Shown here piece by piece: positions 4,095 through 22,111 of a stretch of 45,319 nt of DNA (within the stretch, counting starts at the first letter, position 1; every line of letters begins with the position of its first letter). Origin of the DNA: a virus; IMG/VR virus record IMGVR_UViG_3300045988_147626, positions 1-45,319 of that record. One strand, given 5' to 3'. The notes beneath the pieces are model-generated. The model did no database searches. It was not told where the DNA came from and saw only the letters and a program-made list of their open reading frames with translations. The position numbers and the translations under genes were made by a program.

Positions 4095-6992
4095 ATGGCG
4101 GACGGAACCATAGTAATTGATACGGCGATCCGGAAAGATGGGCTTGATGCCGGAATTAATGAGATAGAACAGGCACTGGACGGCGCATCGGCGCAGTTTC
4201 ATGATTATGGGGATTCTGTTCAGAAGTTCATCGATGACTATATGAACGGAGCCGGACAGGCATCTCGGTACACGAACGAATTAAAGCAGCAGGTTGAATC
4301 TTTAAAAAAACAGTTAAAGGATCTGGAAGATAATGGAAAATGGTTTGGCGATGAAGATTACAATAGTACATTCCTAAAATATCAGCAGCTCATGCAGGAA
4401 GTTAAGGAATGGAAAAGGGCTATTGTCAATCCAGAGTCAGATGTCAAACTGTTTGACTCGAGCACCCTGGAAGGTCAGATCGGGAAGCTGACCGGCGATT
4501 TGATGAAATTACGCAACAGCGGAAAGGGCTTCGGAGATGAGACGTTTGATGCGACGGCGATCGCGCTGAAACGAGCCCAGCACTCACTTGCAGATTATCA
4601 AAAAGAACTGTTTAAGACAGATGAGCAGCGGCAGAAAGAGGCAGAAACAGCCAGGAAGCAGGAAGAAGCGCAGCGGCGCGTGAATGAGAGGCTGGAGGAA
4701 GCGCGGCAAAAGGAAGCCGCCGCCGCTCAGGAAGCTGCCCGGCTTTCGGCGATCGGTGAGAATGCTAAAATTTCGAATCGACGCATCGTGTCCCTCAATA
4801 AGGAACTGGCTGCCCTGGAGGCACGACAAAAGGAACTGTCAAAAGCGGGCGTAGGGCCGGGAAACAAAGAATATGACAGCAACGCCCGGAAAATAAGGAA
4901 GCTTAGGGAAGAACTGAGCCGTTACCAGAGCGGCGCAAAGGCATCTGAAAAGCAGACTAAGAAACTGAATAAATCCTTGGATAATACCAAGAAATCGGCG
5001 GGTGGCGCCCGGATGAGCATGAAACGGATGTTGATGATGTCTCTGATGTTTTCAACGGTGTTCCGTGCACTATCTGCAGTTGCTTCGGGGTTAAAGTCCG
5101 GTACGGATAACCTGGCGCAGTATTCGGATGATACAAATCGGGCGCTCTCTATGCTGGTGTCTGCCCTGACCCAGTTGAAAAACAGTTTTGCAACTGCATT
5201 TTCTCCGGCGATCGAGTATGCGGCACCGGCACTGACAAAAATGATTTCACTTTTGTCGGAAGCGGTTACGTGGACGGCACAGTTGGCGGCTGCTTTGACG
5301 GGCAAGGACACATATACGCGGGCAACTAAGGTAGAAGAGGATTACGGCGCCGCCCTGAAGGAGAGCAACCAACAGTTAAAGGATAAGGAGAAACTGAATA
5401 AAAAGCTGCTGTTTAGCTTTGATGAACTGATACAAGCGCAGAAGAACAGCAGTGATACAAAAGATTATGTCGGACCAACACCGGATCAGATGTTTAAAAC
5501 GGAGGAAGTTCCGAATGAAATGAAGGATCTGGCTGCGGATATAAAAAAGACATTCTCTGATTTGTTTGACCCGCTGAAAGAGTCGTGGAAAGAAAATGGT
5601 CCGGAAGTGACGGAGGCTGTTAAAGCGGCTTTTACGGCGATGAAGCAGCTGGCGGGGGATGTCGGGGCTTCCTTTATGCAGGTCTGGAATATGGAAGGAT
5701 ATGGGAAACGTATCACGGATGATCTGCTGATTACGGTTGCCAACCTGGCATGGACGGTCGCTAATCTGGCTACACAGTTGGATGCAGCATGGGTGGCAGG
5801 CGATACCGGCACAAACATCATGCGGCATTTGGGAGATATCATTTTAGAAATCACAGGCTTTTTCCGTGATGCATCGCAGAGTATGAAAGACTGGTCGGCA
5901 GATTTGGACTTTTCTCCGTTACTTACCAGTTTTGATGCAGTTTTTGCGGCACTGGGACCGGTGGTAGGAGACATTGGCGACGCGTTGCTGTGGTTATTGA
6001 ATAAATGCCTTCTCCCGTTGGCAAAATGGGGGCTTGAATCAGGGCTTCCGGCGGTATTTGACCTGATAGCGGCGGCGCTGACGGCATTACATAGTGTGCT
6101 CATGGCAGCAGAACCGACATTCGACTGGATGTGGAATGATTTCTTCCAGCCGATTGGGCAATGGACAGGTGAGTTAATCATCGGAGCACTCCAGAAGCTT
6201 ACGCAGGCGCTTTTGAGGTTTTCAGACTGGGCATCTCAGCATAAGAGTACGATTCAAGCGCTTACGGAGGTTGTAATCATGTTCTTTGCGGCATGGGCGG
6301 TCACAACGCTGGTTTCTCATGTTGGATTGATGATCGCGAATCTTGGGAAGCTGATTGGCGTTCTGGCAACGACCAATATCAAATTCTTGGCGATTGTGAC
6401 GGTTCTGACAGCAGTTGCAGGGCTGGCAATGAAAGTGGCTCAGGCGTGGACAAAAATGACACCAGGAGAGCGGCTGGCGACGAAGATCATCGCGGTAGCT
6501 GGTGCGATTGCATTGGTGGTAGCGGCGATCGGAGCGTTGACCTCCAATTATGTGATGCTTGGTGTGGCGATGGCGGTTGCGGGAATCGCAGGATTGGGAA
6601 TTTCCAGTATTGTGAGCAGTGCAAATTCCAGAAGCGGAAACAGCCGACCGAATACAGCATCTGCATATCAGAATGCGAACCGGGCAGTTTCTTACGCGAG
6701 CGCACCGTTCAGGATGCCTCGTCTGGCAACTGGTACGGTGGTACCGCCGAGAGCGGGTGAGTTCGCTGCTATCTTAGGAGACAATAAACGGGAAACTGAG
6801 GTGGTATCTCCGCTTAGCACGATGAAACAGGCTTTGAAAGAGGCACTGGAGGAATCTGGGGCAATCGGCGGCGGAAGAGATATTCATATAGATTTGATAC
6901 TGAACGGGCAGAGATTTGCCAGTGCAGTATATAAGGCGAACAATCAGGAAAGACAGCGTGTAGGAGTAAGGATGGTGCAACAGAATGCCTAA
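4095..6992 (+). CDS. Tail tape measure protein (965 aa)
   Basis: Longest ORF. N-terminal coiled coil, multiple hydrophobic segments in the C-terminal part, canonical position. Confidence 0.9.
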   Translation: MADGTIVIDTAIRKDGLDAGINEIEQALDGASAQFHDYGDSVQKFIDDYMNGAGQASRYTNELKQQVESLKKQLKDLEDNGKWFGDEDYNSTFLKYQQLMQEVKEWKRAIVNPESDVKLFDSSTLEGQIGKLTGDLMKLRNSGKGFGDETFDATAIALKRAQHSLADYQKELFKTDEQRQKEAETARKQEEAQRRVNERLEEARQKEAAAAQEAARLSAIGENAKISNRRIVSLNKELAALEARQKELSKAGVGPGNKEYDSNARKIRKLREELSRYQSGAKASEKQTKKLNKSLDNTKKSAGGARMSMKRMLMMSLMFSTVFRALSAVASGLKSGTDNLAQYSDDTNRALSMLVSALTQLKNSFATAFSPAIEYAAPALTKMISLLSEAVTWTAQLAAALTGKDTYTRATKVEEDYGAALKESNQQLKDKEKLNKKLLFSFDELIQAQKNSSDTKDYVGPTPDQMFKTEEVPNEMKDLAADIKKTFSDLFDPLKESWKENGPEVTEAVKAAFTAMKQLAGDVGASFMQVWNMEGYGKRITDDLLITVANLAWTVANLATQLDAAWVAGDTGTNIMRHLGDIILEITGFFRDASQSMKDWSADLDFSPLLTSFDAVFAALGPVVGDIGDALLWLLNKCLLPLAKWGLESGLPAVFDLIAAALTALHSVLMAAEPTFDWMWNDFFQPIGQWTGELIIGALQKLTQALLRFSDWASQHKSTIQALTEVVIMFFAAWAVTTLVSHVGLMIANLGKLIGVLATTNIKFLAIVTVLTAVAGLAMKVAQAWTKMTPGERLATKIIAVAGAIALVVAAIGALTSNYVMLGVAMAVAGIAGLGISSIVSSANSRSGNSRPNTASAYQNANRAVSYASAPFRMPRLATGTVVPPRAGEFAAILGDNKRETEVVSPLSTMKQALKEALEESGAIGGGRDIHIDLILNGQRFASAVYKANNQERQRVGVRMVQQNA

Positions 6993-7392: not shown

Positions 7393-9146
7393 TGGGAGAA
7401 GGACTGAAGATTGTATATGACGATGTGGCGCCATATGCGAAAGAAAATAGCACTCCGCAAATTGTAAAAGCAGGATTGCGCCCTCATAAAGGACTTTTCC
7501 CGCAAGCGGGGTTGACGCCGGCAGCGACAACCGTAGAACGAGAGTTCTTGGATCTACGCCGGGATGATTTGACCTACCCCGGTTATGCGCTTTGTTATCC
7601 TGGCTTTTCTCTGCTGGATGGAAACTATATCAATATGCCAGCTCTGGCGGATGATTACGGATATATTTCGGATGAGTGGTCGGATGCGGACGGTAATTTT
7701 GGATGGAGATATAGCAGAAAAGGGCTCACACCTCAAAAAGGGCTGTACCCGCGAACATTTCTATACCCAGCACCTGGCGGAAGTACCTGGATGGATATGC
7801 CAGCACTGACGATCAGTTTCAACGGGAAGTTTTCAAGTGTAGGTCTTCTTCTTACGTTCAATTTGCTGTCGGGAGATTATGCGCGGAAGCTCAATATTAA
7901 ATGGTATGCAGATGATACTCTGCTTTCAAATAAGGATTTTGAGCCGGACAGTGCGAGATATTTCTGTAGCAATTATGTGCTACGGTACAACAAGATTGTA
8001 CTGACATTCCAAAGTACATCAAAACCATACCGCCCGGTATTCCTTATCCGCATTGATTACGGAATCTATCGTGATTTCCTTTCAGATGAGTTGCTTGAAA
8101 CGGATTGCTTGCAGGAGATCAATGCGATATCGGAGAGCATCAGCATTAATACGTTGTCGTTTACTGTTCGGGCAAAGAATAATATTCCGTTCGACCTACA
8201 GAAGAAGCAGAGATTGGGATTGTACTTCGACGGGCGTTTGCTGGGAAATTTTTACTTAAAGAGCGGCGCCAGAAAGAATCGAGTAGATTATTATATGGAC
8301 ACGCACGATGCATTGGGAATCTTGGATGGCAATGAATATCATGGAGGGATTTACTCGGCTGTGAAAGTAGATACGGTACTGCATGAAATATTTGCCGGGG
8401 AAGATTTTGGATATACATTGGATGAGTCCTATAAGGATGTTACGCTGACCGGGTATATTCCGTATACGAGCAAGCGAAATGCGCTGGTGCAGGTGGCGTT
8501 TGCCATCGGGGCGATCGTAGATACATCTTACGGAGATTGTGTGCGGATTTATCCGCAGTCGCAGGAAATAACGGGAACTTTTGATAATTCGAACACGTTT
8601 GATGGATTGACCCTGGAGCATAGCGACATAGTAACCGGAATCCGGCTGACCGTTCACAGCTATGCGGAGACGGATGAGGAGGAAGAGCTATACAAGGAAG
8701 CGCTGAATGGAACCGCGGAGATTGTATTTTCGGAACCGCATCATAGCCTCTCAATCCTCGGCGGCGCTCTGGAAGAGAGTGGAGCCAATTATGCGATCAT
8801 AACAGGAACAGGAGCCGTTATTACACTGACTGGAAAAAAATACGGTCATTCGACATCCCAGTTATCGAAAGATAATCCGGATATTATTTACAACAAAAAT
8901 ATTAAAGAGGTAACGGATGCGACTCTCATAAATCCAGAAAATGGACCGGCGGCACTGGAACGCATTTATGAATATTACCAGCGGGCAGAGAGCGTTGTTG
9001 GCGATGTGCTTCTGGAAGAGGACAAGCAGTTGGGACAGAAAGTGCAGATTGACACCGGCTACGACGGCATCCGCACAGGAGTAATAGAAAGCATTGATCC
9101 GAGTTTTGCAACAGGAATAAGAGCGAGGATAAGCATACATGAGTGA
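7392..9146 (+). CDS. Tail-associated / baseplate structural protein (584 aa)
   Basis: ATG at 7392 follows AAAAGGAGA and overlaps the upstream stop. Large ORF after the Dit-like gene. Repeated KGL(F/Y)P motifs near the N-terminus. Confidence 0.6.
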   Translation: MGEGLKIVYDDVAPYAKENSTPQIVKAGLRPHKGLFPQAGLTPAATTVEREFLDLRRDDLTYPGYALCYPGFSLLDGNYINMPALADDYGYISDEWSDADGNFGWRYSRKGLTPQKGLYPRTFLYPAPGGSTWMDMPALTISFNGKFSSVGLLLTFNLLSGDYARKLNIKWYADDTLLSNKDFEPDSARYFCSNYVLRYNKIVLTFQSTSKPYRPVFLIRIDYGIYRDFLSDELLETDCLQEINAISESISINTLSFTVRAKNNIPFDLQKKQRLGLYFDGRLLGNFYLKSGARKNRVDYYMDTHDALGILDGNEYHGGIYSAVKVDTVLHEIFAGEDFGYTLDESYKDVTLTGYIPYTSKRNALVQVAFAIGAIVDTSYGDCVRIYPQSQEITGTFDNSNTFDGLTLEHSDIVTGIRLTVHSYAETDEEEELYKEALNGTAEIVFSEPHHSLSILGGALEESGANYAIITGTGAVITLTGKKYGHSTSQLSKDNPDIIYNKNIKEVTDATLINPENGPAALERIYEYYQRAESVVGDVLLEEDKQLGQKVQIDTGYDGIRTGVIESIDPSFATGIRARISIHE

Positions 9147-9582
9147 GATTCTTGACAGTTTGATATTTGACCGGGTACAGGAAGATTTAGATAACCTGAC
9201 GCAGAAAGCATACATTGATTATGCAGATTTGAACCGCATTGAGGGGGCTGTAAAATGGGTTTCTTATGTGCTGAATCGATACGGCTATAAAAATACGACA
9301 CACAATAAGCTGAATTGGAAAATGAATGACTTTCGGACAGAGAAAGAGATGGAGCGCCTGCGGGATAATATAGCAGCTATCCGGGCGGCTTATTATACCC
9401 CAGACAGTACACCGCTTACGCCGGAAAGAATTACATACACATCCATTTATCAGGCAAACGCGATCGAGAAGATCATTTATGATATTGGCACATTGATTGA
9501 GACGTCTTCGCCAGGAATGCAGCATTTAAGTTTCAGGCTGGGAGCTGGCAGGGCACTAGGGAACAGGAGTATAGCAATATGA
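9139..9582 (+). CDS. Hypothetical tail/baseplate protein
   Basis: 147-aa ORF translationally coupled on both sides within the fibre block. Confidence 0.5.
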   Translation: MSEILDSLIFDRVQEDLDNLTQKAYIDYADLNRIEGAVKWVSYVLNRYGYKNTTHNKLNWKMNDFRTEKEMERLRDNIAAIRAAYYTPDSTPLTPERITYTSIYQANAIEKIIYDIGTLIETSSPGMQHLSFRLGAGRALGNRSIAI

Positions 9583-10106
9583 GCTTAAAGACAGATTATA
9601 AAAACGATATCTTTACTGGCAAGCGGAAATATCAGATAACCAATAATGCGGATGGAACGGTTTCTCTGGATGATGTAACGGACTATGTGCAGGAGGGGGA
9701 TATTCTTTCGGCGGATGATGTGAATGCGATCAATAAAGCGGTAAATGAGCTGCAGACAGGAAGCGATTCGTTCCAGGAAGAAATTACAGGCCGGGTCGAT
9801 GATATATCTGGAACTGCGGAGGCCCTGACCGGAGAAGTGCTTCTGACACTTCGAGCATCCAGGTGGAGCGATACAGCACCGTATACGCAGAAGGTTGCAT
9901 TTGTTGGAATAAAGGAAACGGACATTCCTATATACGGGTTACGTTTGACGGGAACGCTGTCCAACGTGACGGTAGAAGCGCAGAAACTTGCGTGGGGCTA
10001 CGTGGATCGGATCGCATCGGGTGATGACGTTGTGACGGCATATTGTTACAGCAAAAAGCCTGTGACGGACATCGTTGTATCGGCGAAAGGGGTAAAACAT
10101 GGCTGA
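9579..10106 (+). CDS. Tail fibre-like protein
   Basis: The N-terminus KTDYKNDIFTGKRKYQITNNADGTVSLDDVT is a motif I associate with Firmicutes phage fibre proteins. Confidence 0.55.
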   Translation: MSLKTDYKNDIFTGKRKYQITNNADGTVSLDDVTDYVQEGDILSADDVNAINKAVNELQTGSDSFQEEITGRVDDISGTAEALTGEVLLTLRASRWSDTAPYTQKVAFVGIKETDIPIYGLRLTGTLSNVTVEAQKLAWGYVDRIASGDDVVTAYCYSKKPVTDIVVSAKGVKHG

Positions 10107-10521
10107 TGGAATTTTGTTAAAGCATGGTGCCGGTGTGGATAATACGGATTTGACCGCGGTATCGGGGGATGTCCTGGAAGGAGAGAAATTCTTGGGAGCT
10201 GACAGCAAGGAAGCGCAGATGGGAGCGATGAAACGGATAACGGCGGTTGATAAGTCAATGACCGTCAATGAGACTTACAACATCCCTGCTGGATATCATG
10301 ATGGTACGGATTCTTTCCATCAGTCAGGGATTCCAGTTGAGGATGGTCCGCAGATTGATCCAGGCAGCGGTGGAATTACTGTAAATGTAAAAGGAAAATA
10401 CCTGCAGAGTAATGCAGTTCTTATGTCGGTGGAGAACCTACGACCAGAAGTGATAAAGTACGGGGTTCAAATCGGAGATATTACGGGAAATTATCAAGGA
10501 TTTCCAGATGAGGAGGGGTAA
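10099..10521 (+). CDS. Tail fibre-associated protein, paralogous to the N-terminus of the next gene
   Basis: Shares LTA..VLEG.KF.G, IPAG.Y.GG and NL.PE.IK.G....G...GF motifs with residues 1-135 of ORF 10524..11456. Confidence 0.5.
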   Translation: MADGILLKHGAGVDNTDLTAVSGDVLEGEKFLGADSKEAQMGAMKRITAVDKSMTVNETYNIPAGYHDGTDSFHQSGIPVEDGPQIDPGSGGITVNVKGKYLQSNAVLMSVENLRPEVIKYGVQIGDITGNYQGFPDEEG

Positions 10522-10523
10522 CG

Positions 10524-11456
10524 GTGGATGGATTGCTGGATATGGTGGTGCAGAGCGCAGATTTTGATGCGCTGACAGCGACACCGGAAATGGTATTGGA
10601 AAAGAAAAAATTCATTGGTCCAGATGGCGCCATCAGTGTAGGTACAATGCCTGATAGGGGTTCCCCTACGATTTCCCTTCCTTTGAATGGAACAGCGTCA
10701 ATACCGGCAGGAAAATACAGTGGAGGAAAGGTTACGCAGAATATCCCGGCAATGGGAGATTATACAATCTATCCGACCAGTAAGGAACAGCAGATTCCAA
10801 CAAAAGGGGTCTATATGGGTGGAAACATCATCGTTCCCAAGCTGAGCAATCTGGTGCCGGAGAATATCAAAGAAGGGGAATACGTCGGCGGCGTCGGGCC
10901 GGGAACCTGGAAAGGGTTTGTGGTGAATGATCCGTATACGCTGTATTATCGGGGAACGTTTGACCCGGGGCAGAGTATAAAAATACTTAAATCATACAGC
11001 AATTCACATACGGTGAATCCTACATATGAAGAAAAGTATATTTACTTAGCGCCTGATGGACGTTTGACGGAACAGTTTTGCAGATTTAATCCTATTGATA
11101 TAACGGGAAAGAAAACATTAATAATTGAATATACGGTTTATTTGAAAGCGATAGCATACAATACTTGCTATATGAAGCCGTTTTTAACTACGTTTGATCC
11201 AGATGATGGAAGTGGGGGGCGATTGGATGTTCTCGGAGATAAAAATTTGTTGGGAATAACGACGTTGGGAAGAGATACTAAATATACGGCGCCAACCGCT
11301 GTAAGTGGTGATGGAGCTCATGATGGTGATCAAATAGAAAGTCTTCGGGTGGATGTATCATCTTTTTCACGAACGGTATATCTTTCCTTGTATGTATCTA
11401 TGACAAAATATGAGAAGTATGCTTGGTTTAAAATTCATAGCATAAAATTCGAATAA
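10524..11456 (+). CDS. Tail fibre / receptor-binding-like protein (310 aa)
   Basis: GTG start. The N-terminal domain is paralogous to the upstream gene. The C-terminal half is AT-rich and beta-rich. Confidence 0.55.
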   Translation: MDGLLDMVVQSADFDALTATPEMVLEKKKFIGPDGAISVGTMPDRGSPTISLPLNGTASIPAGKYSGGKVTQNIPAMGDYTIYPTSKEQQIPTKGVYMGGNIIVPKLSNLVPENIKEGEYVGGVGPGTWKGFVVNDPYTLYYRGTFDPGQSIKILKSYSNSHTVNPTYEEKYIYLAPDGRLTEQFCRFNPIDITGKKTLIIEYTVYLKAIAYNTCYMKPFLTTFDPDDGSGGRLDVLGDKNLLGITTLGRDTKYTAPTAVSGDGAHDGDQIESLRVDVSSFSRTVYLSLYVSMTKYEKYAWFKIHSIKFE

Positions 11457-11469
11457 AGGAGAAATCAAT

Positions 11470-12084
11470 ATGGGAATGAATGATAAACACAATTACGATC
11501 CAACAAAATGGGTAGACAATAGCGAACCGGATATTGATGCAGAACATTTGAATAAAATTGAATCAGCGCTACAAGAATACGGTGTCAGCATTGATGAGCT
11601 GGCGGCGGCAGGGGGTACCGCCGCGAAAGTCAAGACTACCGATACATACGGTTTGGTAGTGAGTGCCTTGGGGGAGAGTACAGCGCAAGTGCTGATCGAT
11701 GCGATCGCCAATAAGGTTGTGAATGAGCTTATCAATAAAAATAAGATTGTAAACAACCTTCTGGCGACGGATGCCTCCACCGTTCTGGCGGGAACGCAGG
11801 GCACGGCGCTGGATAAAAGGTTGGTGGCGGCGGAGAAAGCGGTTACTCAGTTAAATAGTGATATTAAAATTAAATTTTATGGCAAAGTTACAGATTTATC
11901 AGTAATAAAAACACTTTGTCAACAAGAATATGAATGTTGGGTTGGCTATATTGATTGGAAGAATACTGAAATCTTGCCCTCTACTGGTGGTACTATGCTT
12001 TGGTTTGCATTTGATTGGATAGTATGTGGGTTATGTTATGGAAAGATGTTTTATTTAAATATGGATACTCTTACATGGTCTTAA
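11470..12084 (+). CDS. Tail fibre protein: constant N-terminal part plus the currently expressed variable C-terminal cassette
   Basis: GGAGA RBS. The N-terminal W..NSEPDIDAEHLNKIE motif is fibre-like. The recombination core TTAAATAGTGA lies at codons 128-131, and composition turns AT-rich after 11861. Confidence 0.75.
   Translation: MGMNDKHNYDPTKWVDNSEPDIDAEHLNKIESALQEYGVSIDELAAAGGTAAKVKTTDTYGLVVSALGESTAQVLIDAIANKVVNELINKNKIVNNLLATDASTVLAGTQGTALDKRLVAAEKAVTQLNSDIKIKFYGKVTDLSVIKTLCQQEYECWVGYIDWKNTEILPSTGGTMLWFAFDWIVCGLCYGKMFYLNMDTLTWS
11851..11861 (+). repeat. Inversion core site S0 (TTAAATAGTGA) inside the fibre gene
   Basis: Direct reading. Its reverse complement occurs four times at 13.6-14.7 kb. 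Confidence 0.8.
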
Positions 12085-12189
12085 GTTTAAATATTCTCAT
12101 CTATTATTAAATAACAATTTCATAAAGAAAATTTTACAGAATCTCTCCGTTTTGGTACCTTAAAAGTGTCAGAAAGGAGAAATTTTTAT

Positions 12190-13212
12190 ATGGTAGAAGA
12201 GTTATTGATGAATGTGGTAAATGCAATGAGTAATTGCTTGGATGAAGAGCAGTTGGACAAGCTGCAGAATGTCCTGTACATCAATTTCCACGATGTGAGA
12301 GTAGTAGAAGAGAAGAATGAGCTCCAGGCGACCGGCACCGACAGCGACACCGCAAAGATGCGGTTATTTGTGGCATCTAAAAAAGTGTCAGGTAGGCAAG
12401 ACAATACATTGGCTCAGTACATCAGGGAGATCACTAATTGCCGTAACGCGCTGCGAAAGAATATTGAGGATATCACTACGATGGATCTACGCTGGTACTT
12501 TGGAATGCTCCGGGAGCGGAACAAAATCAGTATGGTTACGCTGCAGGGGCGGATGCGATATCTAAACAGCTTCTGGACCTTTCTACAAAAAGAAAATCTT
12601 GTAAAGGACAACCCAGTGGCGCGAATCGAGTCACTCCGGATCGAAAGCACCATCAAAAAAGCGTTTTCGGCACAGGAACTGGAAGCCCTCCGGATCGCCT
12701 GTGAGCGTCCGCGGGATAGAGCACTGATAGAGTTTTTGTATGCGACGGGAGTGCGTGTGTCCGAGCTATGCAGCTTAAGTGTAGGAGATATAGATTTATA
12801 CAAACAGGAGTTCAAAGTTATGGGTAAGGGCCGCAAGGAGAGGAGATTATACGTCTCAGACGTAGCTTGCTTTCATCTCTACCGATATCTGAGGTGGAGA
12901 ATGGCAAAAGAGGGGCTGACGATGGAAGAATTGGCACAGAAACCGCTTTTTGTATCTGCGAAGAAGCCATATAGCCGCATGACAGTGGCGGGAGTGCAGT
13001 ATCTAGTGAAAACTTTAGGAAAGAAAGCGGGAGTTGGAAATGTGCATCCGCATCGATTCCGCCGAACCTTTGCGACGGATCTGCTCAACCGAGGAATGCG
13101 GATCGAGGAGGTCATGGTGCTGATGGGGCATACAAAGATAGAGACCACATTAATTTACTGCAATATCAAGCAGGATAACGTGAGAGAGTCTTATCGTAAA
13201 TATGCAGCGTAG
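12190..13212 (+). CDS. Tyrosine site-specific recombinase (XerC/XerD/Rci-like), candidate shufflon invertase
   Basis: Catalytic signature ATGVRVSEL (R), HPHRFRRTF (H-x-x-R) and MGHTKIETTLIY (H...Y). ATG at 12190 follows AAAGGAGA, whereas the track start 12166 is a GTG upstream of the RBS. Confidence 0.9.
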   Translation: MVEELLMNVVNAMSNCLDEEQLDKLQNVLYINFHDVRVVEEKNELQATGTDSDTAKMRLFVASKKVSGRQDNTLAQYIREITNCRNALRKNIEDITTMDLRWYFGMLRERNKISMVTLQGRMRYLNSFWTFLQKENLVKDNPVARIESLRIESTIKKAFSAQELEALRIACERPRDRALIEFLYATGVRVSELCSLSVGDIDLYKQEFKVMGKGRKERRLYVSDVACFHLYRYLRWRMAKEGLTMEELAQKPLFVSAKKPYSRMTVAGVQYLVKTLGKKAGVGNVHPHRFRRTFATDLLNRGMRIEEVMVLMGHTKIETTLIYCNIKQDNVRESYRKYAA

Positions 13213-13355
13213 ATAGGAGAGAAGAGCACCTTTTTAGGTCGGCAGAAATGGCGGCTTTTTTGTTGTACGCAAAAATAGGAGATAGGAGAGGGTAGGGGAA
13301 TAAGTGATGGACGGTGGCAAAAATAGAGTAAGTTTTTCGCTATTAAATTGTTATT

Positions 13356-13623
13356 TCAAGATGCCGTATATATGTCAGTTAAAACGGTTCCATTGTGTCG
13401 GTAAACTTTGATTGAGCCCCAGGAGTTGATCAGCAAAATACTTCCTTTGGCATTATCGTATTTATTGATAAGCCCGATCCATGCCTCGGCAGAATTTCGG
13501 TACAGAAGTGCAGCTACACCAGTTTTAAAAGTATTCCAATTAGCATACATGTCATTTTTTATGCCGTTACTGTCGTTGGCACTGACAGTATGAAGAGCAT
13601 TGGTAAATAAGGCCTCACTATTT
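13356..13623 (-). other. Silent fibre C-terminal cassette 1 with site S1 (core 13615..13623)
   Basis: The minus strand reads AAT AGT GAG and stays open for 88 codons to TGA at 13356..13358. There is no RBS or start at the site. Confidence 0.7.
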
Positions 13624-13998
13624 CACTTAATTTTAATCGCCCATATTTCGTATTGAATCGTGATAGGCGAATCAGCCCAGCAGAAAAAATATAAAGTGGT
13701 TTCCTTGGAAAACCCCATAGCAAAGGTATTATTACATGAACGATATTCAGTCACATCATTACGTGCTGTGGTTGTGGGAATGTTTAAGGCTTTTTCATAT
13801 AAAGGTAGATCTTGTTTGAAGGTATCTATTCTCGTATCAAGATATATGCTGTTTGAGCAGTTTACATCAGAGCGCTGCCCTATGATGTATGTGCCAGCAG
13901 GAAGCGTTATTGATTTTGTTCCTCGAGTCCATGAATTTATGACAGAAACATTATATGTTTCCAATGAGCTCCAATACTGTTTTCCCAGGTCACTATTT
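13623..13998 (-). other. Silent fibre C-terminal cassette 2 with site S2 (core 13990..13998)
   Basis: The minus strand reads TTA AAT AGT GAC and stays open for 124 codons. Its TGA stop (13623..13625) abuts site S1. Confidence 0.7.
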
Positions 13999-14021
13999 AA
14001 TGGGGACAACCCTTTGGCATA

Positions 14022-14382
14022 TTATCCTATTTTTAAATACGTAACTGCTTTTAAAGCCAAATTATTAAATATCTGTGAACTACCTTTGAACAAGATACGA
14101 AACGTTACGGTTCCGGTATTCGAATCGAACGAAGCCTGAATTGTGCTTTTCCAATAAGGATCATCCGTAAATGTGTTTGCCACTGTCGTTCCATATGTGC
14201 GACCATTGCCTGTTAAGATAAGTATGTCGTATACTGCAGATTCAAAAGCCAAACTTACCATATTTGCGCCGATTAAACTATTGTGCTGATATTTATAGTC
14301 CGTATTTATTGCGCTTGGAATTACATTTATCCATAGTGTTTTAGGTGTGGCATTGTTCCAGCGGGCAGAGGTCTCACTATTT
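14022..14382 (-). other. Silent fibre C-terminal cassette 3 with site S3 (core 14374..14382)
   Basis: The minus strand reads TTA AAT AGT GAG and stays open for 119 codons. This frame runs into track ORF 14022..14261. Confidence 0.7.
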
Positions 14383-14714
14383 AACTTGCTACAAGTCTAT
14401 TCCAGGATTCCCAAGTGGTCGGGGTGTAGTTTATGTTTCTTCGAAAATAAATAGCTTTATCACTCGAATCAGTTGAAATGGCAAATTGCGTGATCCAAGC
14501 GGTCGAACTATTTCCAAAGTCGTTGGATGTGTTAAAGGTTATTATGATCCAATAGCCCTCAAACGGAAGATTTAAACCTGTTTTGCCTGTTTTGTAGATT
14601 CCACTCGCCAACATGTAATTAGCATTAGTGTAATATTGATATCTCGATTGAAAAGCAGCGCAAAAGCTATTTTCGCTACCACTTGCTATAAGGTGACTGG
14701 AGGCTTCACTATTT
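14381..14714 (-). other. Silent fibre C-terminal cassette 4 with site S4 (core 14706..14714)
   Basis: The minus strand reads CAA AAT AGT GAA and stays open for 110 codons. Its TAA stop (14381..14383) lies inside site S3. Confidence 0.7.
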
Positions 14715-14789
14715 TGTGGAGAGAACCAGAAATGATACATCATGCTAATATAAAATAAGTAAATCCTATTAATAAGGAGGAAAAATATT

Positions 14790-15167
14790 ATGGATAAAAT
14801 GATTCTCAAAGACAACACAACAGTCGAACTGCAGACAGGAGCATCCCTGTCAGCGGTAACAGCCAAGTTTGACAGCAAGGATGCTATGCTGGAAACTTGG
14901 AAAACACTGACTCTGGAAAATCTGGCAGAAGTAAAATTCCAGAATAATGCTGGAATGACTGTCGGGACATATACGGACTTGATTCTTGAATCTGAAACCT
15001 CGCAGGAAGTATCTGATGGCGTACAGACCACGTTTTCTTTCCGTGAGAAAACCGATACGGAAAAACGTTTGGATGCCCTGGAAGAGGGACAGGCGGTGCA
15101 AGATGAGGCGATCAATGATCTTGGAACAGCGACAAGCGAACTGGCAGAGAAAGAAGGTGTAGAGTAA
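14790..15167 (+). CDS. Hypothetical protein upstream of the lysis cassette (125 aa)
   Basis: AAGGAGG RBS. Acidic protein in the position commonly occupied by small conserved pre-holin genes in Firmicutes phages. Confidence 0.6.
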   Translation: MDKMILKDNTTVELQTGASLSAVTAKFDSKDAMLETWKTLTLENLAEVKFQNNAGMTVGTYTDLILESETSQEVSDGVQTTFSFREKTDTEKRLDALEEGQAVQDEAINDLGTATSELAEKEGVE

Positions 15168-15289
15168 TGGGTGCGTTTTATGGGAAAAGAATCAGAAGCG
15201 GGAAAATGACACTGGAAGAGGTGCCGACTTACTGGAAAAAAGCGACTGAAAAATGGCTGAAAGAACATCCGGAGGAGGCGGAAAGATGA
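15167..15289 (+). CDS. Small XkdX/CD1375-like protein (40 aa)
   Basis: Not in the track because it is under 60 aa. Its ATG overlaps the upstream TAA. The sequence MGAFYGKRIRSGKMTLEEVPTYWKKATEKWL resembles small pre-holin proteins. Its stop overlaps the holin ATG. Confidence 0.45.
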   Translation: MGAFYGKRIRSGKMTLEEVPTYWKKATEKWLKEHPEEAER

Positions 15290-15774
15290 GTAGAAATGCG
15301 TGCGTAACAATGCAGATGCTGGCGACCGGATTGGTGGCCTACCTCAGCGACAAGCTGGGAGTTACTTTTTATTTGCTGGGGTTGCTTCTGGCTCTCATGG
15401 TGATTGATTATCTGTCCGGTATGGCAGCAAGCAGGGTAGAGGCGTTGGAGCATCCAAACGATAAGACTTATGGGTGGAGTAGCCGCAAGGGGGCGATCGG
15501 GATCGCCAAAAAAGTGGCTTATCTGTTTGTGATCGCGGTGGCGATGGTAATTGATTACGTTATTATCCAGACATCAAGTGTGCTGGGAGCATCGCTGCCT
15601 AATACGATGCTGTCATTACTGGTAACGGTCTGGTATTTACTCAATGAGGCATTGTCGATTACTGAAAATGCCGGGCGCATGGGAGCACCAGTGCCGGAAT
15701 GGCTTGCAAAATACATAGCCGTCCTTAAAAACAAGATTGACAGCAAAGGCGAAAACGGAGACAACCATGCATAG
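15286..15774 (+). CDS. Holin (phage_holin_4 / TcdE-like family)
   Basis: ATG at 15286 in an ATGA overlap. Three hydrophobic segments. The LLNEALSITENAGRMGAPVPEWL motif is typical of this holin family. Confidence 0.8.
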   Translation: MSRNACVTMQMLATGLVAYLSDKLGVTFYLLGLLLALMVIDYLSGMAASRVEALEHPNDKTYGWSSRKGAIGIAKKVAYLFVIAVAMVIDYVIIQTSSVLGASLPNTMLSLLVTVWYLLNEALSITENAGRMGAPVPEWLAKYIAVLKNKIDSKGENGDNHA

Positions 15775-15891
15775 AAGGAGGTGATCCGGATATCTCCCGC
15801 GGCAGCCTGGGTCATGGCTGCCATTGCGATATCGCAACAGGGCGGACCTAGTTCCGCTCCTTACATATTATAAAGAAAAGAGGACAAATCA

Positions 15892-16215
15892 ATGATGAAA
15901 GCAATGTTATCTCAGCCGATGGCTGGAAAAACGGATGAGGAAATTATCGCAACCAGAGAAAAGGCGATCAAGGCGCTGGAGGCGCGGGGATACGAGATCG
16001 TGAATACCCTGTTTACAGATGAGTGGTACAACCGTGAAAACATGGAGAAACGCGGCGTGGTGCAGATCCCGCTTTGCTTCCTTGCAAAGTCACTGGAAAA
16101 TATGTCTCTGTGTCATGCGGCGTATTTTTGTAAAGGATGGGAACAAGCGCGGGGCTGCCGGTTAGAGCACGAGGCGGCTGTAGCTTACGGTCTGACTGTT
16201 ATTTATGAGGAGTGA
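15892..16215 (+). CDS. DUF4406-like (nucleoside 2-deoxyribosyltransferase-fold) protein
   Basis: 107 aa. N-terminal LSQPMAGKTDEE and C-terminal GWEQARGCRLEHEAAVAYGLTV resemble DUF4406. The family call needs HMM confirmation. Confidence 0.55.
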   Translation: MMKAMLSQPMAGKTDEEIIATREKAIKALEARGYEIVNTLFTDEWYNRENMEKRGVVQIPLCFLAKSLENMSLCHAAYFCKGWEQARGCRLEHEAAVAYGLTVIYEE

Positions 16216-16219
16216 GATT

Positions 16220-17062
16220 ATGAGAGATATTACATTATGCCATCCGCGTCTCCAGACCCTGACTGCGCAGCTCGTCGATAAGTGTGCCGGTGCAGGTTTG
16301 CCGATTAAAATCGGGGAATCTTTCCGGAGCGTCGCCGAACAGGACGCTCTGTATGCACAAGGACGCACGCAGCCGGGCAGTATTGTCACGAATGCAAAAG
16401 GCAGCAGCTACAGCAGTCAGCACCAGTGGGGCATCGCAGCGGATTTTTACCGCGCTGACGGAAAAGGTGCATACAACGAAGCAGGAGATTATTTCAATCG
16501 GGTTGGAGCGATCGCCAAGCAGCTGGGGCTTGCATGGGGAGGCGATTGGAAAAGCATCGTAGACAAGCCACACGTATATTTGCCGGATTGGGGCAGCGGT
16601 ACTGGGATTTTGAAACAGAAATATGGGACATTTGAGGCGTTTAAAAAGACCTGGGCGGTGGAGAACAGCACGGTACCAGAACAGTCAAAAATGGTGATCG
16701 CCGATCTTAAAGAAATTAAGAGCGGCATACGCGGGTTGAGAGTCACTGCGTCCTCACTTATCATACGAACAACTCCAAACGGTACAGACACAGGCAAGCG
16801 CTACACCAAGGATCAGCGTGTGCAACCAATTAATAAATGCTTTGCCGACGGCGATCCGTGGATCCAGACCGCAGACGGCTGGATATCCGGTAAATACCTT
16901 GAGGGCTGGCTTTTACAGGATGGGAGCTGGTGGTATCTACTGAGTGGTTACACCTACCACCATGATACGGTCTACTTGATTGACGGACAGGCGTATGCGT
17001 TTGATTCGGATGGCTGGATGATTACCGCAGATCGGATAGCAGAGGACGGACACATACGATAA
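16220..17062 (+). CDS. Endolysin: M15 (VanY-like) peptidase with SH3b-like and cell-wall-binding repeat C-terminus
   Basis: Motifs ESFRSVAEQDALYAQGRT, SQHQWGIAADF and WGGDW. C-terminal GSWWYL...DGQAYAFDSDGWM repeats. ATG at 16220 follows AGGAG. Confidence 0.85.
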   Translation: MRDITLCHPRLQTLTAQLVDKCAGAGLPIKIGESFRSVAEQDALYAQGRTQPGSIVTNAKGSSYSSQHQWGIAADFYRADGKGAYNEAGDYFNRVGAIAKQLGLAWGGDWKSIVDKPHVYLPDWGSGTGILKQKYGTFEAFKKTWAVENSTVPEQSKMVIADLKEIKSGIRGLRVTASSLIIRTTPNGTDTGKRYTKDQRVQPINKCFADGDPWIQTADGWISGKYLEGWLLQDGSWWYLLSGYTYHHDTVYLIDGQAYAFDSDGWMITADRIAEDGHIR

Positions 17063-17142: not shown

Positions 17143-17361
17143 CGTGTGATATTTCGTGTGATATTTACCCCGAAAAAGGGGTTCAAAATGCCGAAAATGG
17201 CATTCGCAAAGAAGTTCCTTAAAACACCGAGAACCCTTGTAAATAAAGGAAAAATCCAATATTTACAAGGGCTCCTGCGAGTGGACCAGACGGGAGTTGA
17301 ACCCGCCCAAAACCCTTGATTTTAAAGGTTCTTTAAGCATCGTGTGATATTTCGTGTGATA
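17142..17361. other. Candidate attP: tRNA 3-prime-like core flanked by arm-type repeats
   Basis: On the minus strand, 17282..17306 reads GCGGGTTCAACTCCCGTCTGGTCCA (T-arm plus acceptor 3-prime strand). The 10-mer TCGTGTGATA occurs four times (17142, 17154, 17340, 17352). A 12-bp inverted repeat lies at 17234..17245 / 17260..17271. Confidence 0.55.
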
Positions 17362-18382
17362 CTTGCTCAAAATGCTTATTGATAAGGTCATTTTGTTTTA
17401 CAGACTCATTTGAGATAGCATTTCGGTAAACAGTTTTCATCACACCGTCAGTGCTCCAGCCGCCGCGTTGCAGAATATACTGATCCGGAACACCAATGGC
17501 GTGCATGATACTTGCCGAGTAGTGCCGCAGATCATGAAAGCGGAAATCTGGAAGCCCGGCTTTCGCCAACGCCCGCTTGAAACGGTGTGAGATGGTATCA
17601 GGGGTGGACGAAAACAAATGCCCTTTGATACCGGATAGTTTTGCGATTACCGGATCCGGAAGCGGTATAGTGCGATAGGAGGCATAGGTTTTAGGAACCT
17701 TTGTGTACCATACGTTATCCTTGCCCCGGACATAACTCTTTGTAATGGAGACCATGTTGCCTGTAATGTCTTTGTCAGTAAGAGCGCAGAGCTCGCTGCG
17801 GCGTAATGGCCCGAAAGCTCCCAACAGTACAGCACGCTCCAATTCTGGATCATCTTGAATGCTATCCAGCAATTTTTTTATGTCAGCATCAGAAGGACAA
17901 TACAGTTCAGCCTTCTTTTTGGCTGGCAGCTGGATCTTAAAATGTTGATCCGGAGCAAACATTTCCAGGGTCGGCTTCAACAGTCCGATGATGTTATGGA
18001 CTGATTTTGGAGATAGGTCTCGGCTCATGTCGGAGATCCAGATCTGCAGCTGCTGGCTGGTTAAGTCATTGATTTTAGTTTTCCCGAATGGTCCGGAAAA
18101 ACGGGTTTTATAAATGGATTCGTATCCGCGTATGGTGGCAGGAGAAAGGACGCCGTCCTTTGCGTCGATATACCTCCGGGCAGCACTCTGGACCGTTAGA
18201 TTGGAGGCGGCCTCTTGCTCGTATTTGCGATGTAGCTGCCATTCGCTTCGCAGTGCTTTAGCTTCTGCCAGCGTCGGAGCCGTAAAACTGCGGTAGTGCT
18301 TTTTGCCAGCATCGTCTGTGTAATCATATGCCTGGATCCGGACAGAGCCGGACGGCAGCAAGTGCTTTTGTTTTTTTGCCAT
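17333..18382 (-). CDS. int: Tyrosine integrase (phage integrase family with N-terminal arm-binding domain)
   Basis: 349 aa. C-terminal RFHDLRHYSAS and GGW...MKTVY catalytic motifs. Located next to the attP-like region. Confidence 0.92.
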   Translation of the reverse strand: MAKKQKHLLPSGSVRIQAYDYTDDAGKKHYRSFTAPTLAEAKALRSEWQLHRKYEQEAASNLTVQSAARRYIDAKDGVLSPATIRGYESIYKTRFSGPFGKTKINDLTSQQLQIWISDMSRDLSPKSVHNIIGLLKPTLEMFAPDQHFKIQLPAKKKAELYCPSDADIKKLLDSIQDDPELERAVLLGAFGPLRRSELCALTDKDITGNMVSITKSYVRGKDNVWYTKVPKTYASYRTIPLPDPVIAKLSGIKGHLFSSTPDTISHRFKRALAKAGLPDFRFHDLRHYSASIMHAIGVPDQYILQRGGWSTDGVMKTVYRNAISNESVKQNDLINKHFEQVSHEISHDA

Positions 18383-21955: not shown

Positions 21956-22111
21956 AATAAAGTCCTCCTTTTATTATAGAAGTATAACACTGGGGAGCTG
22001 TAGAAGACAAGAAAGTGGTGAAAAAGATGAGAGAGAATCCTGCGAATGCTCAGATGTCATTAGCTGAGTAGTGGGAATTCTGTTCGCAACAACTGAAAGG
22101 AGAGTGAAATA

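Follow-up and report, generated by a model that had tools for sequence, protein, structure and literature searches.

A gut Clostridium prophage carries a site-specific inversion shufflon that places any one of five different C-terminal tips, presumed to be receptor-binding, onto one constant tail-fibre shaft, and public data contain this phage lineage in all five expression states. Switches of this kind have already been described in Bifidobacterium and Bacteroides phages, whereas we found no description of one for Clostridia-class gut phages. The analysed window is the complete stretch of 45,319 nucleotides of the IMG/VR record IMGVR_UViG_3300045988_147626. The preliminary description of this sequence, which reported one expressed and four silent, start-less tail-fibre cassettes joined through a short inverted core, proved accurate at every coordinate. 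Its interpretation, that inversion between the (+) site and any (-) site splices a new tip in frame onto the constant part, is supported by our analysis. The description did not recognize that the recombinase gene is itself flanked by a second pair of inverted sites and flips on its own. The reconstructed locus includes the following features:

11470..12084 (+), expressed tail-fibre gene (204 aa), with a constant shaft (residues 1-128) and the tip T0
11851..11861 (+), class-1 site S0 (TT-AAAT-AGTG-A), the only (+) site in this arrangement, read as codons L-N-S-D
11862..12084 (+), tip T0, currently expressed (74 codons after N-S, then the stop)
12109..12137 (+), class-2 site, left arm of the recombinase module (TT-AAAT-AACA-ATTT-CA, then an imperfect repeat)
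12190..13212 (+), Xer-like tyrosine recombinase (340 aa), the presumed invertase
13328..13356 (-), class-2 site, right arm of the recombinase module, with the 12-mer AAATAACAATTT at 13345-13356
13356..13623 (-), silent cassette C1 (88 codons from N-S, stop 13356-13358) with its site S1 at 13615-13623
13623..13998 (-), silent cassette C2 (124 codons, stop 13623-13625, abutting S1) with its site S2 at 13990-13998
14022..14382 (-), silent cassette C3 (119 codons, stop 14022-14024, 23 nt from S2) with its site S3 at 14374-14382
14381..14714 (-), silent cassette C4 (110 codons, stop 14381-14383, inside S3) with its site S4 at 14706-14714

The core AAATAGTGA is found once in the (+) orientation within the fibre gene (11853-11861, preceded by TT at 11851-11852) and four times in the (-) orientation downstream; two further (+) copies, at 22107 and 44481, are unrelated. 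Absence of core enrichment under a composition model had been named in advance as grounds for rejecting the shufflon; however, the 7 copies in the window compare with 0.63 expected from dinucleotide shuffles, and 0 of 100 shuffles reached 7. The earlier expectation of 0.35 copies was a uniform-composition estimate. On the minus strand, each downstream copy reads AAT AGT GA(N) and heads an intact frame, the codon counts above including the N and S codons and thus equalling the 86, 122, 117 and 108 further codons reported previously. None of these frames has a usable start: C1 has a stop directly upstream, C2 has only a TTG 9 codons upstream with AAAGG abutting it, and the frame of C4 is open upstream only as the antisense of the next gene. 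The GC content falls from about 0.53 to 0.27-0.38 after position 11861. Among related loci, the left flank of the core is characterized by T at position -2 (30 of 31 unique left flanks).

The fibre gene has a ribosome-binding site and is the last gene of the tail module, which includes a tape measure protein (4095-6992), and it precedes the holin and endolysin genes. It has 412 homologues; the 25 that were examined in full are 90-98% identical up to L128-N-S and then diverge, and an alignment of 21 homologues is invariant up to this point and unalignable after it. The fibre and its tips have no match in Pfam or NCBIfam, and PHROGs gave the fibre only two weak matches to families of unknown function (best E = 1.4e-05). 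The terms 'tail fibre' and 'receptor binding' rest on synteny and on one modelled fold. Structure prediction of the tips and comparison with receptor-binding domains had been proposed as a test, and the C2 tip was modelled as a TNF/C1q-like jelly roll (pLDDT 70-89), a fold matching trimeric lectins and phage tail-fibre heads, with the predicted shaft helix ending exactly at the junction. The model of the window's own fibre with tip T0 was unsuccessful (pLDDT 37.7), and nothing is claimed for T0. The tips are only 16-29% identical to each other.

The recombinase gene lies between S0 and S1, that is, inside the segment that inverts. Its product matches PF00589 (E = 2.6e-35) and SAM-like core-binding domains, and a roughly 60-aa N-terminal extension has no assignment. 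The best family matches are XerA, XerC and XerD, all below the curated NCBIfam cut-offs (NF040815, 207.5 against 220; XerC, 176 against 335; XerD, 175 against 330), and the XerD structure 1a0p matches at 5.7e-25 with all six catalytic residues (R-K-H-R-H-Y) aligned. The protein is Xer-like in fold and catalytic residues but is not an equivalog. It is distinct from the prophage integrase encoded at 17333-18382. Gin and Hin probes, which were not drawn from database records, gave no hit better than E = 0.43 in the window, and no serine invertase was found there. A promoter and terminator scan of 11300-15300 detected no more than was detected in shuffled sequences; a possible TTTACA-17-TGgTACCTT promoter upstream of the recombinase gene was noted by eye only.

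The inversion model made a sharp prediction that we examined directly. We joined window residues 1-128 to each silent cassette in silico and searched public data for the resulting chimeric proteins. All four fusions exist as exact full-length proteins, each on 2-5 contigs: N+C1 (216 aa) on 5 contigs by the cluster table, N+C2 (252 aa), N+C3 (247 aa) on 4 contigs, and N+C4 (238 aa) on 4 contigs by the cluster table. The contigs encoding them are 100% identical to window 11000-11861 and carry the predicted inverted blocks with breakpoints at the cores. In the related locus L156 (L numbers denote the related loci and contigs collected here), window 11849-14000 is inverted whole at 100% identity over 2,152 nt, and in L162 the segment 13328-14386 is inverted as one block. 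C1 is expressed in L078, L080, L087, L091 and L151-L155, whereas T0 is silent (-) in L061, L072, L087, L093, L151, L152 and L156 and silent (+) in L002 and L166. Homology to rearranged relatives ends exactly at 11861.

Comparison of the related loci revealed several characteristic features of the element: (i) near-identical phages (99.5-100% identity) show at least 13 different arrangements, with all breakpoints at cores or at the recombinase arms; (ii) in 65 related loci with 169 sites, no site breaks the rule that (+) sites lie on the fibre side of the recombinase gene and (-) sites beyond it, which holds in all 38 loci that include this gene; (iii) the same cassette occurs expressed, silent (+) and silent (-); (iv) as the inversion model requires, the two cassettes next to the recombinase, T0 and C1 in this lineage, stay next to it in every arrangement; and (v) the core varies in concert, since of 41 loci with two or more sites 34 are all AGCG, 7 are all AGTG and none is mixed. 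Interrupted minus-strand frames in related phages, or independently expressed genes with their own starts, had been listed beforehand as evidence against the model; instead, the silent cassettes keep their full length, have no starts and are found fused in frame, and the alternative of independent small genes was rejected. In the five families with enough divergence, C1, C3 and C4 among them, dN/dS is 0.15-0.33 (0.15 among alleles of C4), indicating purifying selection, whereas C2, with too little divergence, gave 0.84. At least 33 tip families circulate, with 2-6 cassettes per phage.

The recombinase gene occupies its own 1,248-bp invertible module. The module is bounded by a 29-nt inverted repeat, 83% complementary between 12109-12137 and 13328-13356, whose exact 12-mer occurs only at these two places in the window. 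The left arm is a breakpoint of the in-situ module inversion in L141, L142 and L145, and the recombinase gene appears in both orientations, 29 (+) and 9 (-), in the 38 loci. The centre of the arms is the same on both sides in 23 of 26 loci. Contigs also end exactly at site boundaries: L065 and L074 at the junction core, L158 at S1, and L143, L144 (both at 12120), L153, L157 (both at 13345) and L080 at the 12-mer of the arms. Contigs from SRR19487831, SRR17194678 and SRR6840915 are among those that stop exactly at site boundaries. Since no reads were analysed, switching within one population is inferred from these contig ends and from differences between samples and was not measured, and no two contigs from the same sample with different junctions were found among the loci fetched. 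Such contig ends are what coexisting variants in a sample would produce.

Other searches provided limited information. A megablast search of 9000-15300 against 50,697 phage records gave no match, the fibre protein searched against the same records gave only a 28-residue N-terminal match, and a scan of species-representative genomes gave only distant relatives. A scan of IMG/VR for AGTG-type junctions with a tip other than T0 returned only one contig, already in our set. Clostridium phage phiCp-D and Terrisporobacter phage TPELB_ph1 both carry a 28-31% identical recombinase between the last tail gene and the holin, but inverted-repeat searches in these phages gave only AT-rich noise. A diversity-generating retroelement was considered and rejected, because the tips are unrelated sequences and not point-mutated copies of a template.

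We conclude with high confidence that the locus is a recently active inversion shufflon that changes the presumed receptor-binding tip of a prophage tail fibre. In this model, the constant, mostly helical shaft ends in L-N-S-D/E, encoded by the recombination site T-N-AAAT-AG(T/C)G-A, and four oppositely oriented copies each head a promoter-less, start-less cassette for a different C-terminal head domain. The Xer-like recombinase would recombine a (+) site with a (-) site and invert everything between them, the recombinase gene included, so that another cassette becomes fused in frame to the shaft; repeated inversions would also permute the silent cassettes. The private module, bounded by the palindrome T-N-AAAT-N4-ATTT-N-A, flips independently of the cassettes. 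The rearrangements with their exact breakpoints, the five expression states in one lineage and the independent flipping of the module are directly demonstrated by the sequences compared, whereas we infer that this recombinase is the catalyst, that the 4-nt centre of a site is the crossover region and keeps the two site classes from recombining with each other, and that the tips set host range. The outcome is not always inversion, since C3 is precisely absent between direct cores in L141, and the locus can persist in a frozen state, since some relatives (L006, L070, L081) lack the recombinase.

Other explanations appear unlikely. A static mosaic, in which the cassettes are relics and contigs came to differ slowly through ordinary homologous or illegitimate recombination between phages, might be suggested by the notorious mosaicism of tail-fibre genes, by the variable cassette content of lineages and by the loci without a recombinase. 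However, the rearrangements separate genomes that are 99.5-100% identical, the breakpoints sit in 9-12 bp of identity, too short for RecA-type exchange, and the orientation rule, the concerted cores and the selection on silent frames also contradict this view, which we consider very unlikely. Even less likely is an assembly artefact at the short repeats. Most of the evidence does come from metagenome assemblies, and a few contigs look aberrant (the foldback in L006, L054 and L055; L067; L149), but a 9-12 bp repeat is far below assembler k-mer sizes, every junction is in frame and obeys the orientation rule, and the same junctions recur in independent samples, assemblers and sources (ENA, JGI, Logan) and in genomes of the cultured isolates Clostridium sp. 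OM04-7, AM27-28 and AM48-13.

It is also unlikely, although not formally excluded, that the shufflon is driven in trans by the prophage integrase or a host recombinase, the embedded Xer-like gene having another role. Trans-acting invertases exist, such as Mpi of Bacteroides, the second bifidophage locus has no adjacent recombinase (PMC6109161), recombinase-less relatives keep intact cassettes, and no experiment links this recombinase to the sites. On the other hand, the Xer-like gene lies between the (+) and (-) sites in all 38 loci that include it, it is bounded by sites of the same half-site design as the cassette sites, and homologues at 53-59% identity in other phages (L114 and L147) are flanked by related sites that share ATAGTGA or the 12-mer AAATAACAATTT.

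A more far-reaching but tentative possibility is that one Xer-like recombinase runs two independent inversion circuits that are told apart only by the 4-nt centre of a shared site design, T-N-AAAT | N4 | A(TTT). In this view, the centre AGCG or AGTG shuffles the fibre tips, whereas AACA, CGTA or GAAG flips the recombinase gene alone, and the private flip would let the gene regain its orientation, or toggle its own expression, after every tip switch. This would be a natural counterpart of engineered lox/FRT spacer variants. Homologous recombinases that assemble as stand-alone contigs of about 1.25 kb suggest that the design is widespread in gut Clostridia phages.

These findings extend tyrosine-recombinase fibre shufflons to phages of a third bacterial phylum, here of Clostridium fessum-like gut bacteria, and show from public data alone that one phage lineage occupies all of its predicted states. 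At least 33 interchangeable tips on one shaft form a natural catalogue of receptor-binding modules for hosts whose phages are hard to culture. In host-range prediction or clustering of gut phage genomes, this locus should be expected to break assemblies, and a single contig shows only one of several fibre proteins. The short sites, the compact recombinase and the two apparently non-cross-reacting site classes could, if confirmed, become tools for genome engineering.

The suggestion in the preliminary description that such a multi-cassette system was uncharacterized is only partly right, since tyrosine-recombinase tail-fibre/RBP shufflons on Gram-positive siphophages were described in 2018 as the Rin shufflon of Bifidobacterium breve/longum prophages (Mavrich et al. 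2018, PMC6109161) and later reported in Eggerthella lenta prophages (PMC8778435). The Rin system and the present locus share a temperate Gram-positive siphophage context, an RBP gene split into a constant N-terminal part and several start-less C-terminal cassettes, a short asymmetric repeat (11 bp in Rin) upstream of each cassette and inside the expressed gene, and an armless, XerD-like tyrosine invertase distinct from the prophage integrase; the Rin tips are 6-30% identical to each other. The present locus works like Rin, but descent from it is not shown, as homology between the two recombinases was not examined. The site is T-N-AAATAG(T/C)GA here and the unrelated TTCCCTAACCC (rix) in Rin, the hosts are Bacillota and Actinomycetota, respectively, and the head fold is TP901-1-like in Rin and a predicted TNF/C1q-like jelly roll for the one tip modelled here. 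Rin lies at the far end of the cassettes, outside the segment, whereas here the recombinase is central, with cassettes stacking on both sides, and has its own invertible module with a second site class.

In the BV01-like Phocaeicola vulgatus phages (2026 preprint, PMC13596623), a multi-cassette shufflon likewise overlaps the distal end of a tail-fibre gene and has directional motifs of about 10 bp, and all configurations were seen in read data. The host there belongs to Bacteroidota, three cassettes give six isoforms through different stop positions, the motif is TGGGAGAACT with 14-18 bp extensions, and the recombinase flanks the locus rather than sitting inside it. A recombinase gene inside the DNA that it inverts is a feature of the Hin/H-segment of Salmonella and of type I restriction hsdS inversion loci with an embedded tyrosine recombinase; we are not aware, without an exhaustive survey, of a case in which the gene has a private pair of sites, distinct from those of the cassettes, that flips it alone.

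The R64 pilV shufflon also employs a tyrosine recombinase (Rci) and many inverted short sites (sfx), each with one conserved arm, a core and one non-conserved arm, an analogous site design, and multiple inversions select the C-terminus of an adhesin. Its target is a conjugative pilus tip protein on a plasmid, rci lies outside the shufflon, the segments carry paired back-to-back ORFs, and the site sequence is unrelated. No Rci-specific family appeared among the NCBIfam hits, although it was not ascertained that the library includes such a model, so this result does not settle membership in the R64 type. In the Gin (Mu), Cin (P1), Min (p15B) and Pin (e14) host-range inversions (PMC6109161), DNA inversion also swaps the C-terminal part of a phage tail fibre and so changes host range, and Min is a multi-segment shufflon. 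These systems are found in Gram-negative myophages and use serine invertases with 26-bp sites and a Fis-dependent enhancer, whereas the enzyme of the present locus is a tyrosine recombinase.

Analysis of the window sequence confirmed the arrangement given in the preliminary description, namely a single core motif within a tail-fibre gene and four inverted copies downstream, each heading a silent, start-less cassette. The relevant features are as follows.
11470-12084, plus strand: fibre ORF
11853-11861, plus strand: AAATAGTGA within this ORF (site S0), read as L-N-S-D
12109-12137 and 13328-13356: arms of a 29-nt imperfect inverted repeat
12190-13212: gene for a 340-aa tyrosine recombinase (PF00589, E = 2.6e-35), between S0 and S1
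13615, minus strand: the same motif (S1), opening a frame of 88 codons (cassette C1)
13990, minus strand: the same motif (S2), opening a frame of 124 codons (C2)
14374, minus strand: the same motif (S3), opening a frame of 119 codons (C3)
14706, minus strand: the same motif (S4), opening a frame of 110 codons (C4)
15253-15774: holin
16205-17062: endolysin
17333-18382: separate prophage integrase
22107 and 44481, plus strand: two further copies of the motif, unrelated
Each minus-strand copy reads AAT AGT GA(N) and has no usable start, the cassette stops abut or overlap the next site, and the GC content drops from about 0.53 to 0.27-0.38 right after 11861. Enrichment of the motif over background composition had been named in advance as a point on which the model could fail; the seven copies compare with 0.63 expected from dinucleotide-preserving shuffles, and none of 100 shuffles reached seven.

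The window is a temperate phage with a long non-contractile-type tail module, which includes a tail completion protein, a 965-aa tape measure protein, and several baseplate-like proteins of unknown function; no sheath protein was recognised in it. The fibre ORF is the last gene of this module and is followed by the holin, endolysin, and integrase genes. Identical or near-identical fibre proteins are recorded in Clostridium sp. OM04-7, Clostridium fessum, and related human-gut isolates.

The fibre protein has 412 homologs in the protein collection. The 25 homologs inspected in full are 90-98% identical over residues 1-130 and then change abruptly to unrelated sequences of different lengths, some of which are close copies of the silent cassettes C2, C3, and C4 of the window. 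The five tips of the window (the currently expressed tip T0 and the four silent cassettes) are 16-29% identical to each other, with no significant BLASTP match. Pooling of the protein hits with the fetched loci gave at least 33 tip families. The same shaft segment (from about residue 49) and the same tips also occur on a second, longer N-terminus (283 aa with T0; 331 aa with C2, on 86 contigs), as seen in protein P0034, in the related contig L094 (548-1399), and in cluster members of 317-331 aa; so the tip shufflon is shared by phages with two different fibre attachment domains.

To test the inversion model, we built the four proteins that inversion would produce in this very phage by joining window residues 1-128 to the translation of C1, C2, C3, or C4. 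All four proteins (216, 252, 247, and 238 aa) are present as exact full-length sequences in a collection of 15 billion proteins, each on two to five contigs, and the contigs that encode them are 100% identical to window 11000-11861. Among these contigs, L156 carries window 11849-14000 as one inverted block of 2,152 nt at 100% identity, exactly the S0 x S2 product; L162 carries 13328-14386 inverted as one block, the cassettes between S1 and S3; and L163 and L164 encode the same N+C4 protein but differ in the orientation of the recombinase gene. Together with ten contigs that encode the identical T0 fibre, this lineage shows at least 13 arrangements, and every breakpoint is at a core or at the recombinase arms. 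The silent cassettes are permuted (C1-C4-C3-C2 in contig L136, C1-C3-C2 in L140), and C3 is precisely missing between cores in L141. Other small structural variants are a T0 tip with a 29-residue internal deletion (P0033, 175 aa) and a sub-lineage (L159, L161, L162, and L165) in which only the last 133 nt of T0 remain next to the recombinase, followed in L159 by a large serine recombinase gene instead of the lysis genes.

Comparison of 65 annotated loci with a close N-terminus, carrying 169 sites, revealed several common rules. In all 38 loci that include the recombinase gene, every (+) site lies on the fibre side of it and every (-) site beyond it, without exception, which is the invariant expected if every event is an inversion between one (+) and one (-) site. 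The same cassette is found in all three states; for example, C1 is expressed 4 times, silent (+) 11 times, and silent (-) 15 times. The recombinase gene is co-oriented with the fibre gene in 29 loci and opposed in 9. The model also predicts that the two cassettes next to the recombinase can never leave it; in the window's lineage these are T0 and C1, and the prediction holds in every arrangement seen. Some relatives (L006, L054, L055, L070, and L081) lack the recombinase gene: L006, L054, and L055 have a foldback of the first 56 nt of C1 where the recombinase module should be, whereas L070 has T0 followed directly by minus-strand cassettes. These loci look like frozen shufflons. Another contig, the 21.5-kb Logan contig L149 (6380-7128), joins the constant fibre part, at the core, to the inverted copy of window 15835-15096, which is antisense of the holin gene. 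The join uses a pseudo-site, CTGTTGCGATATCGCA (window about 15825-15840, minus strand), that shares only GCGATAT with the true site; it is either an off-target inversion, which would wreck both the fibre tip and the holin, or a chimera.

Beyond the 9-mer, only T at position -2 is conserved (30 of 31 unique left flanks), and the site is therefore T-N-AAAT-AG(T/C)G-A followed by free coding sequence. The T/C difference is synonymous (AGT or AGC, Ser). Among 41 loci with two or more sites, 34 carry only AGCG, 7 carry only AGTG, and none is mixed. Such concerted change is expected if this position lies in the region that must match between partner sites, although this reading is an inference.

A second switch, which flips independently of the cassettes, surrounds the recombinase gene. 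The outer 12-mer of the flanking inverted repeat, AAATAACAATTT, occurs exactly twice in the window, once on each strand. In L141, L142, and L145, the 1,248-bp segment 12109-13356 is inverted in place at 100% identity while both flanks stay collinear, which cannot be produced by core-site inversions. Across 26 loci, each arm has the form T-N-AAAT | N4 | ATTT-(A/C)-A, a 16-bp palindrome with a 4-nt centre of CGTA, AACA, or GAAG (AACA in the window); the centre is the same in both arms in 23 of the 26 loci. The outer half, T-N-AAAT, is the same as the conserved half of the cassette sites. We infer that one enzyme recognises T-N-AAAT half-sites, that the centre is the crossover region, and that different centres keep the two circuits apart. 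The private flip may let the gene regain its orientation after each tip switch or toggle its expression; the 29:9 orientation bias fits the first possibility.

Contig ends provide indirect evidence for coexisting variants within samples. Of the 64 related contigs annotated for the comparison of loci, 52 end within 6 kb after the junction, most of them inside the locus; sequencing reads were not examined. Several contigs stop exactly at a site boundary: L065 and L074 at the last base of the junction core (0 and +1), L158 at S1, L143 and L144 at 12120, L153 and L157 at 13345, and L080 at the outer end of the far arm. Among the best 120 of 1,592 recombinase homologs (E <= 1e-30), 42 have a longest contig of 1.1-1.5 kb, about the size of the module. 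L146 (1,283 nt), a contig with a recombinase homolog, starts exactly at its 12-mer and carries the inverted copy near its other end. Recombinase homologs are thus very common by number, and many of them assemble as stand-alone contigs of about 1.2-1.3 kb bounded by inverted sites, which suggests self-flipping recombinase modules in many gut phages.

Interruption of the silent frames in related phages had been specified beforehand as an outcome that would count against the model. Cassette lengths were found to be constant within families, apart from a few truncated copies in aberrant or cut contigs. The dN/dS between alleles is 0.15-0.33 for the five families with enough divergence, which include C1, C3, and C4, and is similar when both copies of a pair are silent; C2 and two small families have too little divergence to judge. 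Structure prediction for the tips, likewise suggested in advance for comparison with receptor-binding domains, gave a usable tip model for N+C2, whereas the model of the window's own T0 fibre failed. The N+C2 model has a low-confidence helical shaft, as would be expected for a monomer of a probable trimeric coiled coil, and an all-beta C-terminal domain at pLDDT 70-89; the last shaft helix ends at residue 131, the junction. The modelled domain matches TNF-like trimeric lectins (PLTL and BC2L-C, target TM 0.65, rmsd about 3.3 A) and a cyanophage short-tail-fibre binding domain, as well as many phage tail-fibre and C1q-like heads.

The recombinase matches the XerA, XerC, and XerD models below their curated cut-offs and aligns to XerD (1a0p) with R, K, H, R, H, and Y in place; no serine invertase was found in the window. 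Homologs at 53-59% identity in other phages are flanked by related sites. In contig L114 (5896-7897), a different fibre (junction peptide L-Y-S-D-L) is accompanied by a 53% identical recombinase that lies outside the segment. L114 has CAATTGTATAGTGATTT in its fibre gene and, inverted, at the head of a cassette, as well as a perfect inverted AAATAACAATTTGAGT. The two inverted-repeat pairs are in staggered order (A+ B+ ... A- B-, where B is CAATTGTATAGTGATTT and A is AAATAACAATTTGAGT), and A shares the 12-mer of the window's recombinase arms. This layout, of unknown meaning, recalls an engineered flip-excision switch. Contig L147 is bounded by inverted CTAAATCACTATAT. Homologs at 28-31% identity, annotated as integrase, sit between the last tail gene and the holin in two cultured Clostridia phages, Clostridium phage phiCp-D (L134) and Terrisporobacter phage TPELB_ph1 (L135), the latter of which also has a separate integrase; no cassettes or clear sites were found in either.

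Overall, the observation in the preliminary description is real, and the mechanism it proposed, splicing of alternative tips onto a constant fibre part by inversion at the core, is right. The predicted fusion proteins, the inverted blocks with their breakpoints, and the in-place flip of the recombinase module are all seen directly in sequences, and we have high confidence that the locus is a site-specific inversion shufflon that swaps fibre tips; in contrast, the identity of the catalyst, the role of the site centres, and the effect on host range are deduced.

Shufflons of this kind have been previously described in other phages. A systematic screen for gene-altering inversions found phage tail-fibre targets (PMC9881135). 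Cores as short as those described here would be expected to escape a repeat-based screen, although this was not checked. Our full-text searches found no description of such a locus for Clostridia-class phages and none of a recombinase with a private flip, although this absence from a single body of literature is not proof. The Rin shufflon of Bifidobacterium prophages (PMC6109161) has the same logic: a constant part, variable cassettes, 11-bp sites, and an armless XerD-like tyrosine invertase, which was called the first phage-encoded tyrosine invertase. A Rin shufflon was reported in Eggerthella prophages (PMC8778435), and a tail-fibre shufflon was reported in BV01-like Phocaeicola phages (PMC13596623). 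Relative to these systems, the locus described here is a variant with a central and self-flipping recombinase, two site classes built on one design, a large tip repertoire, and a host in a third phylum.
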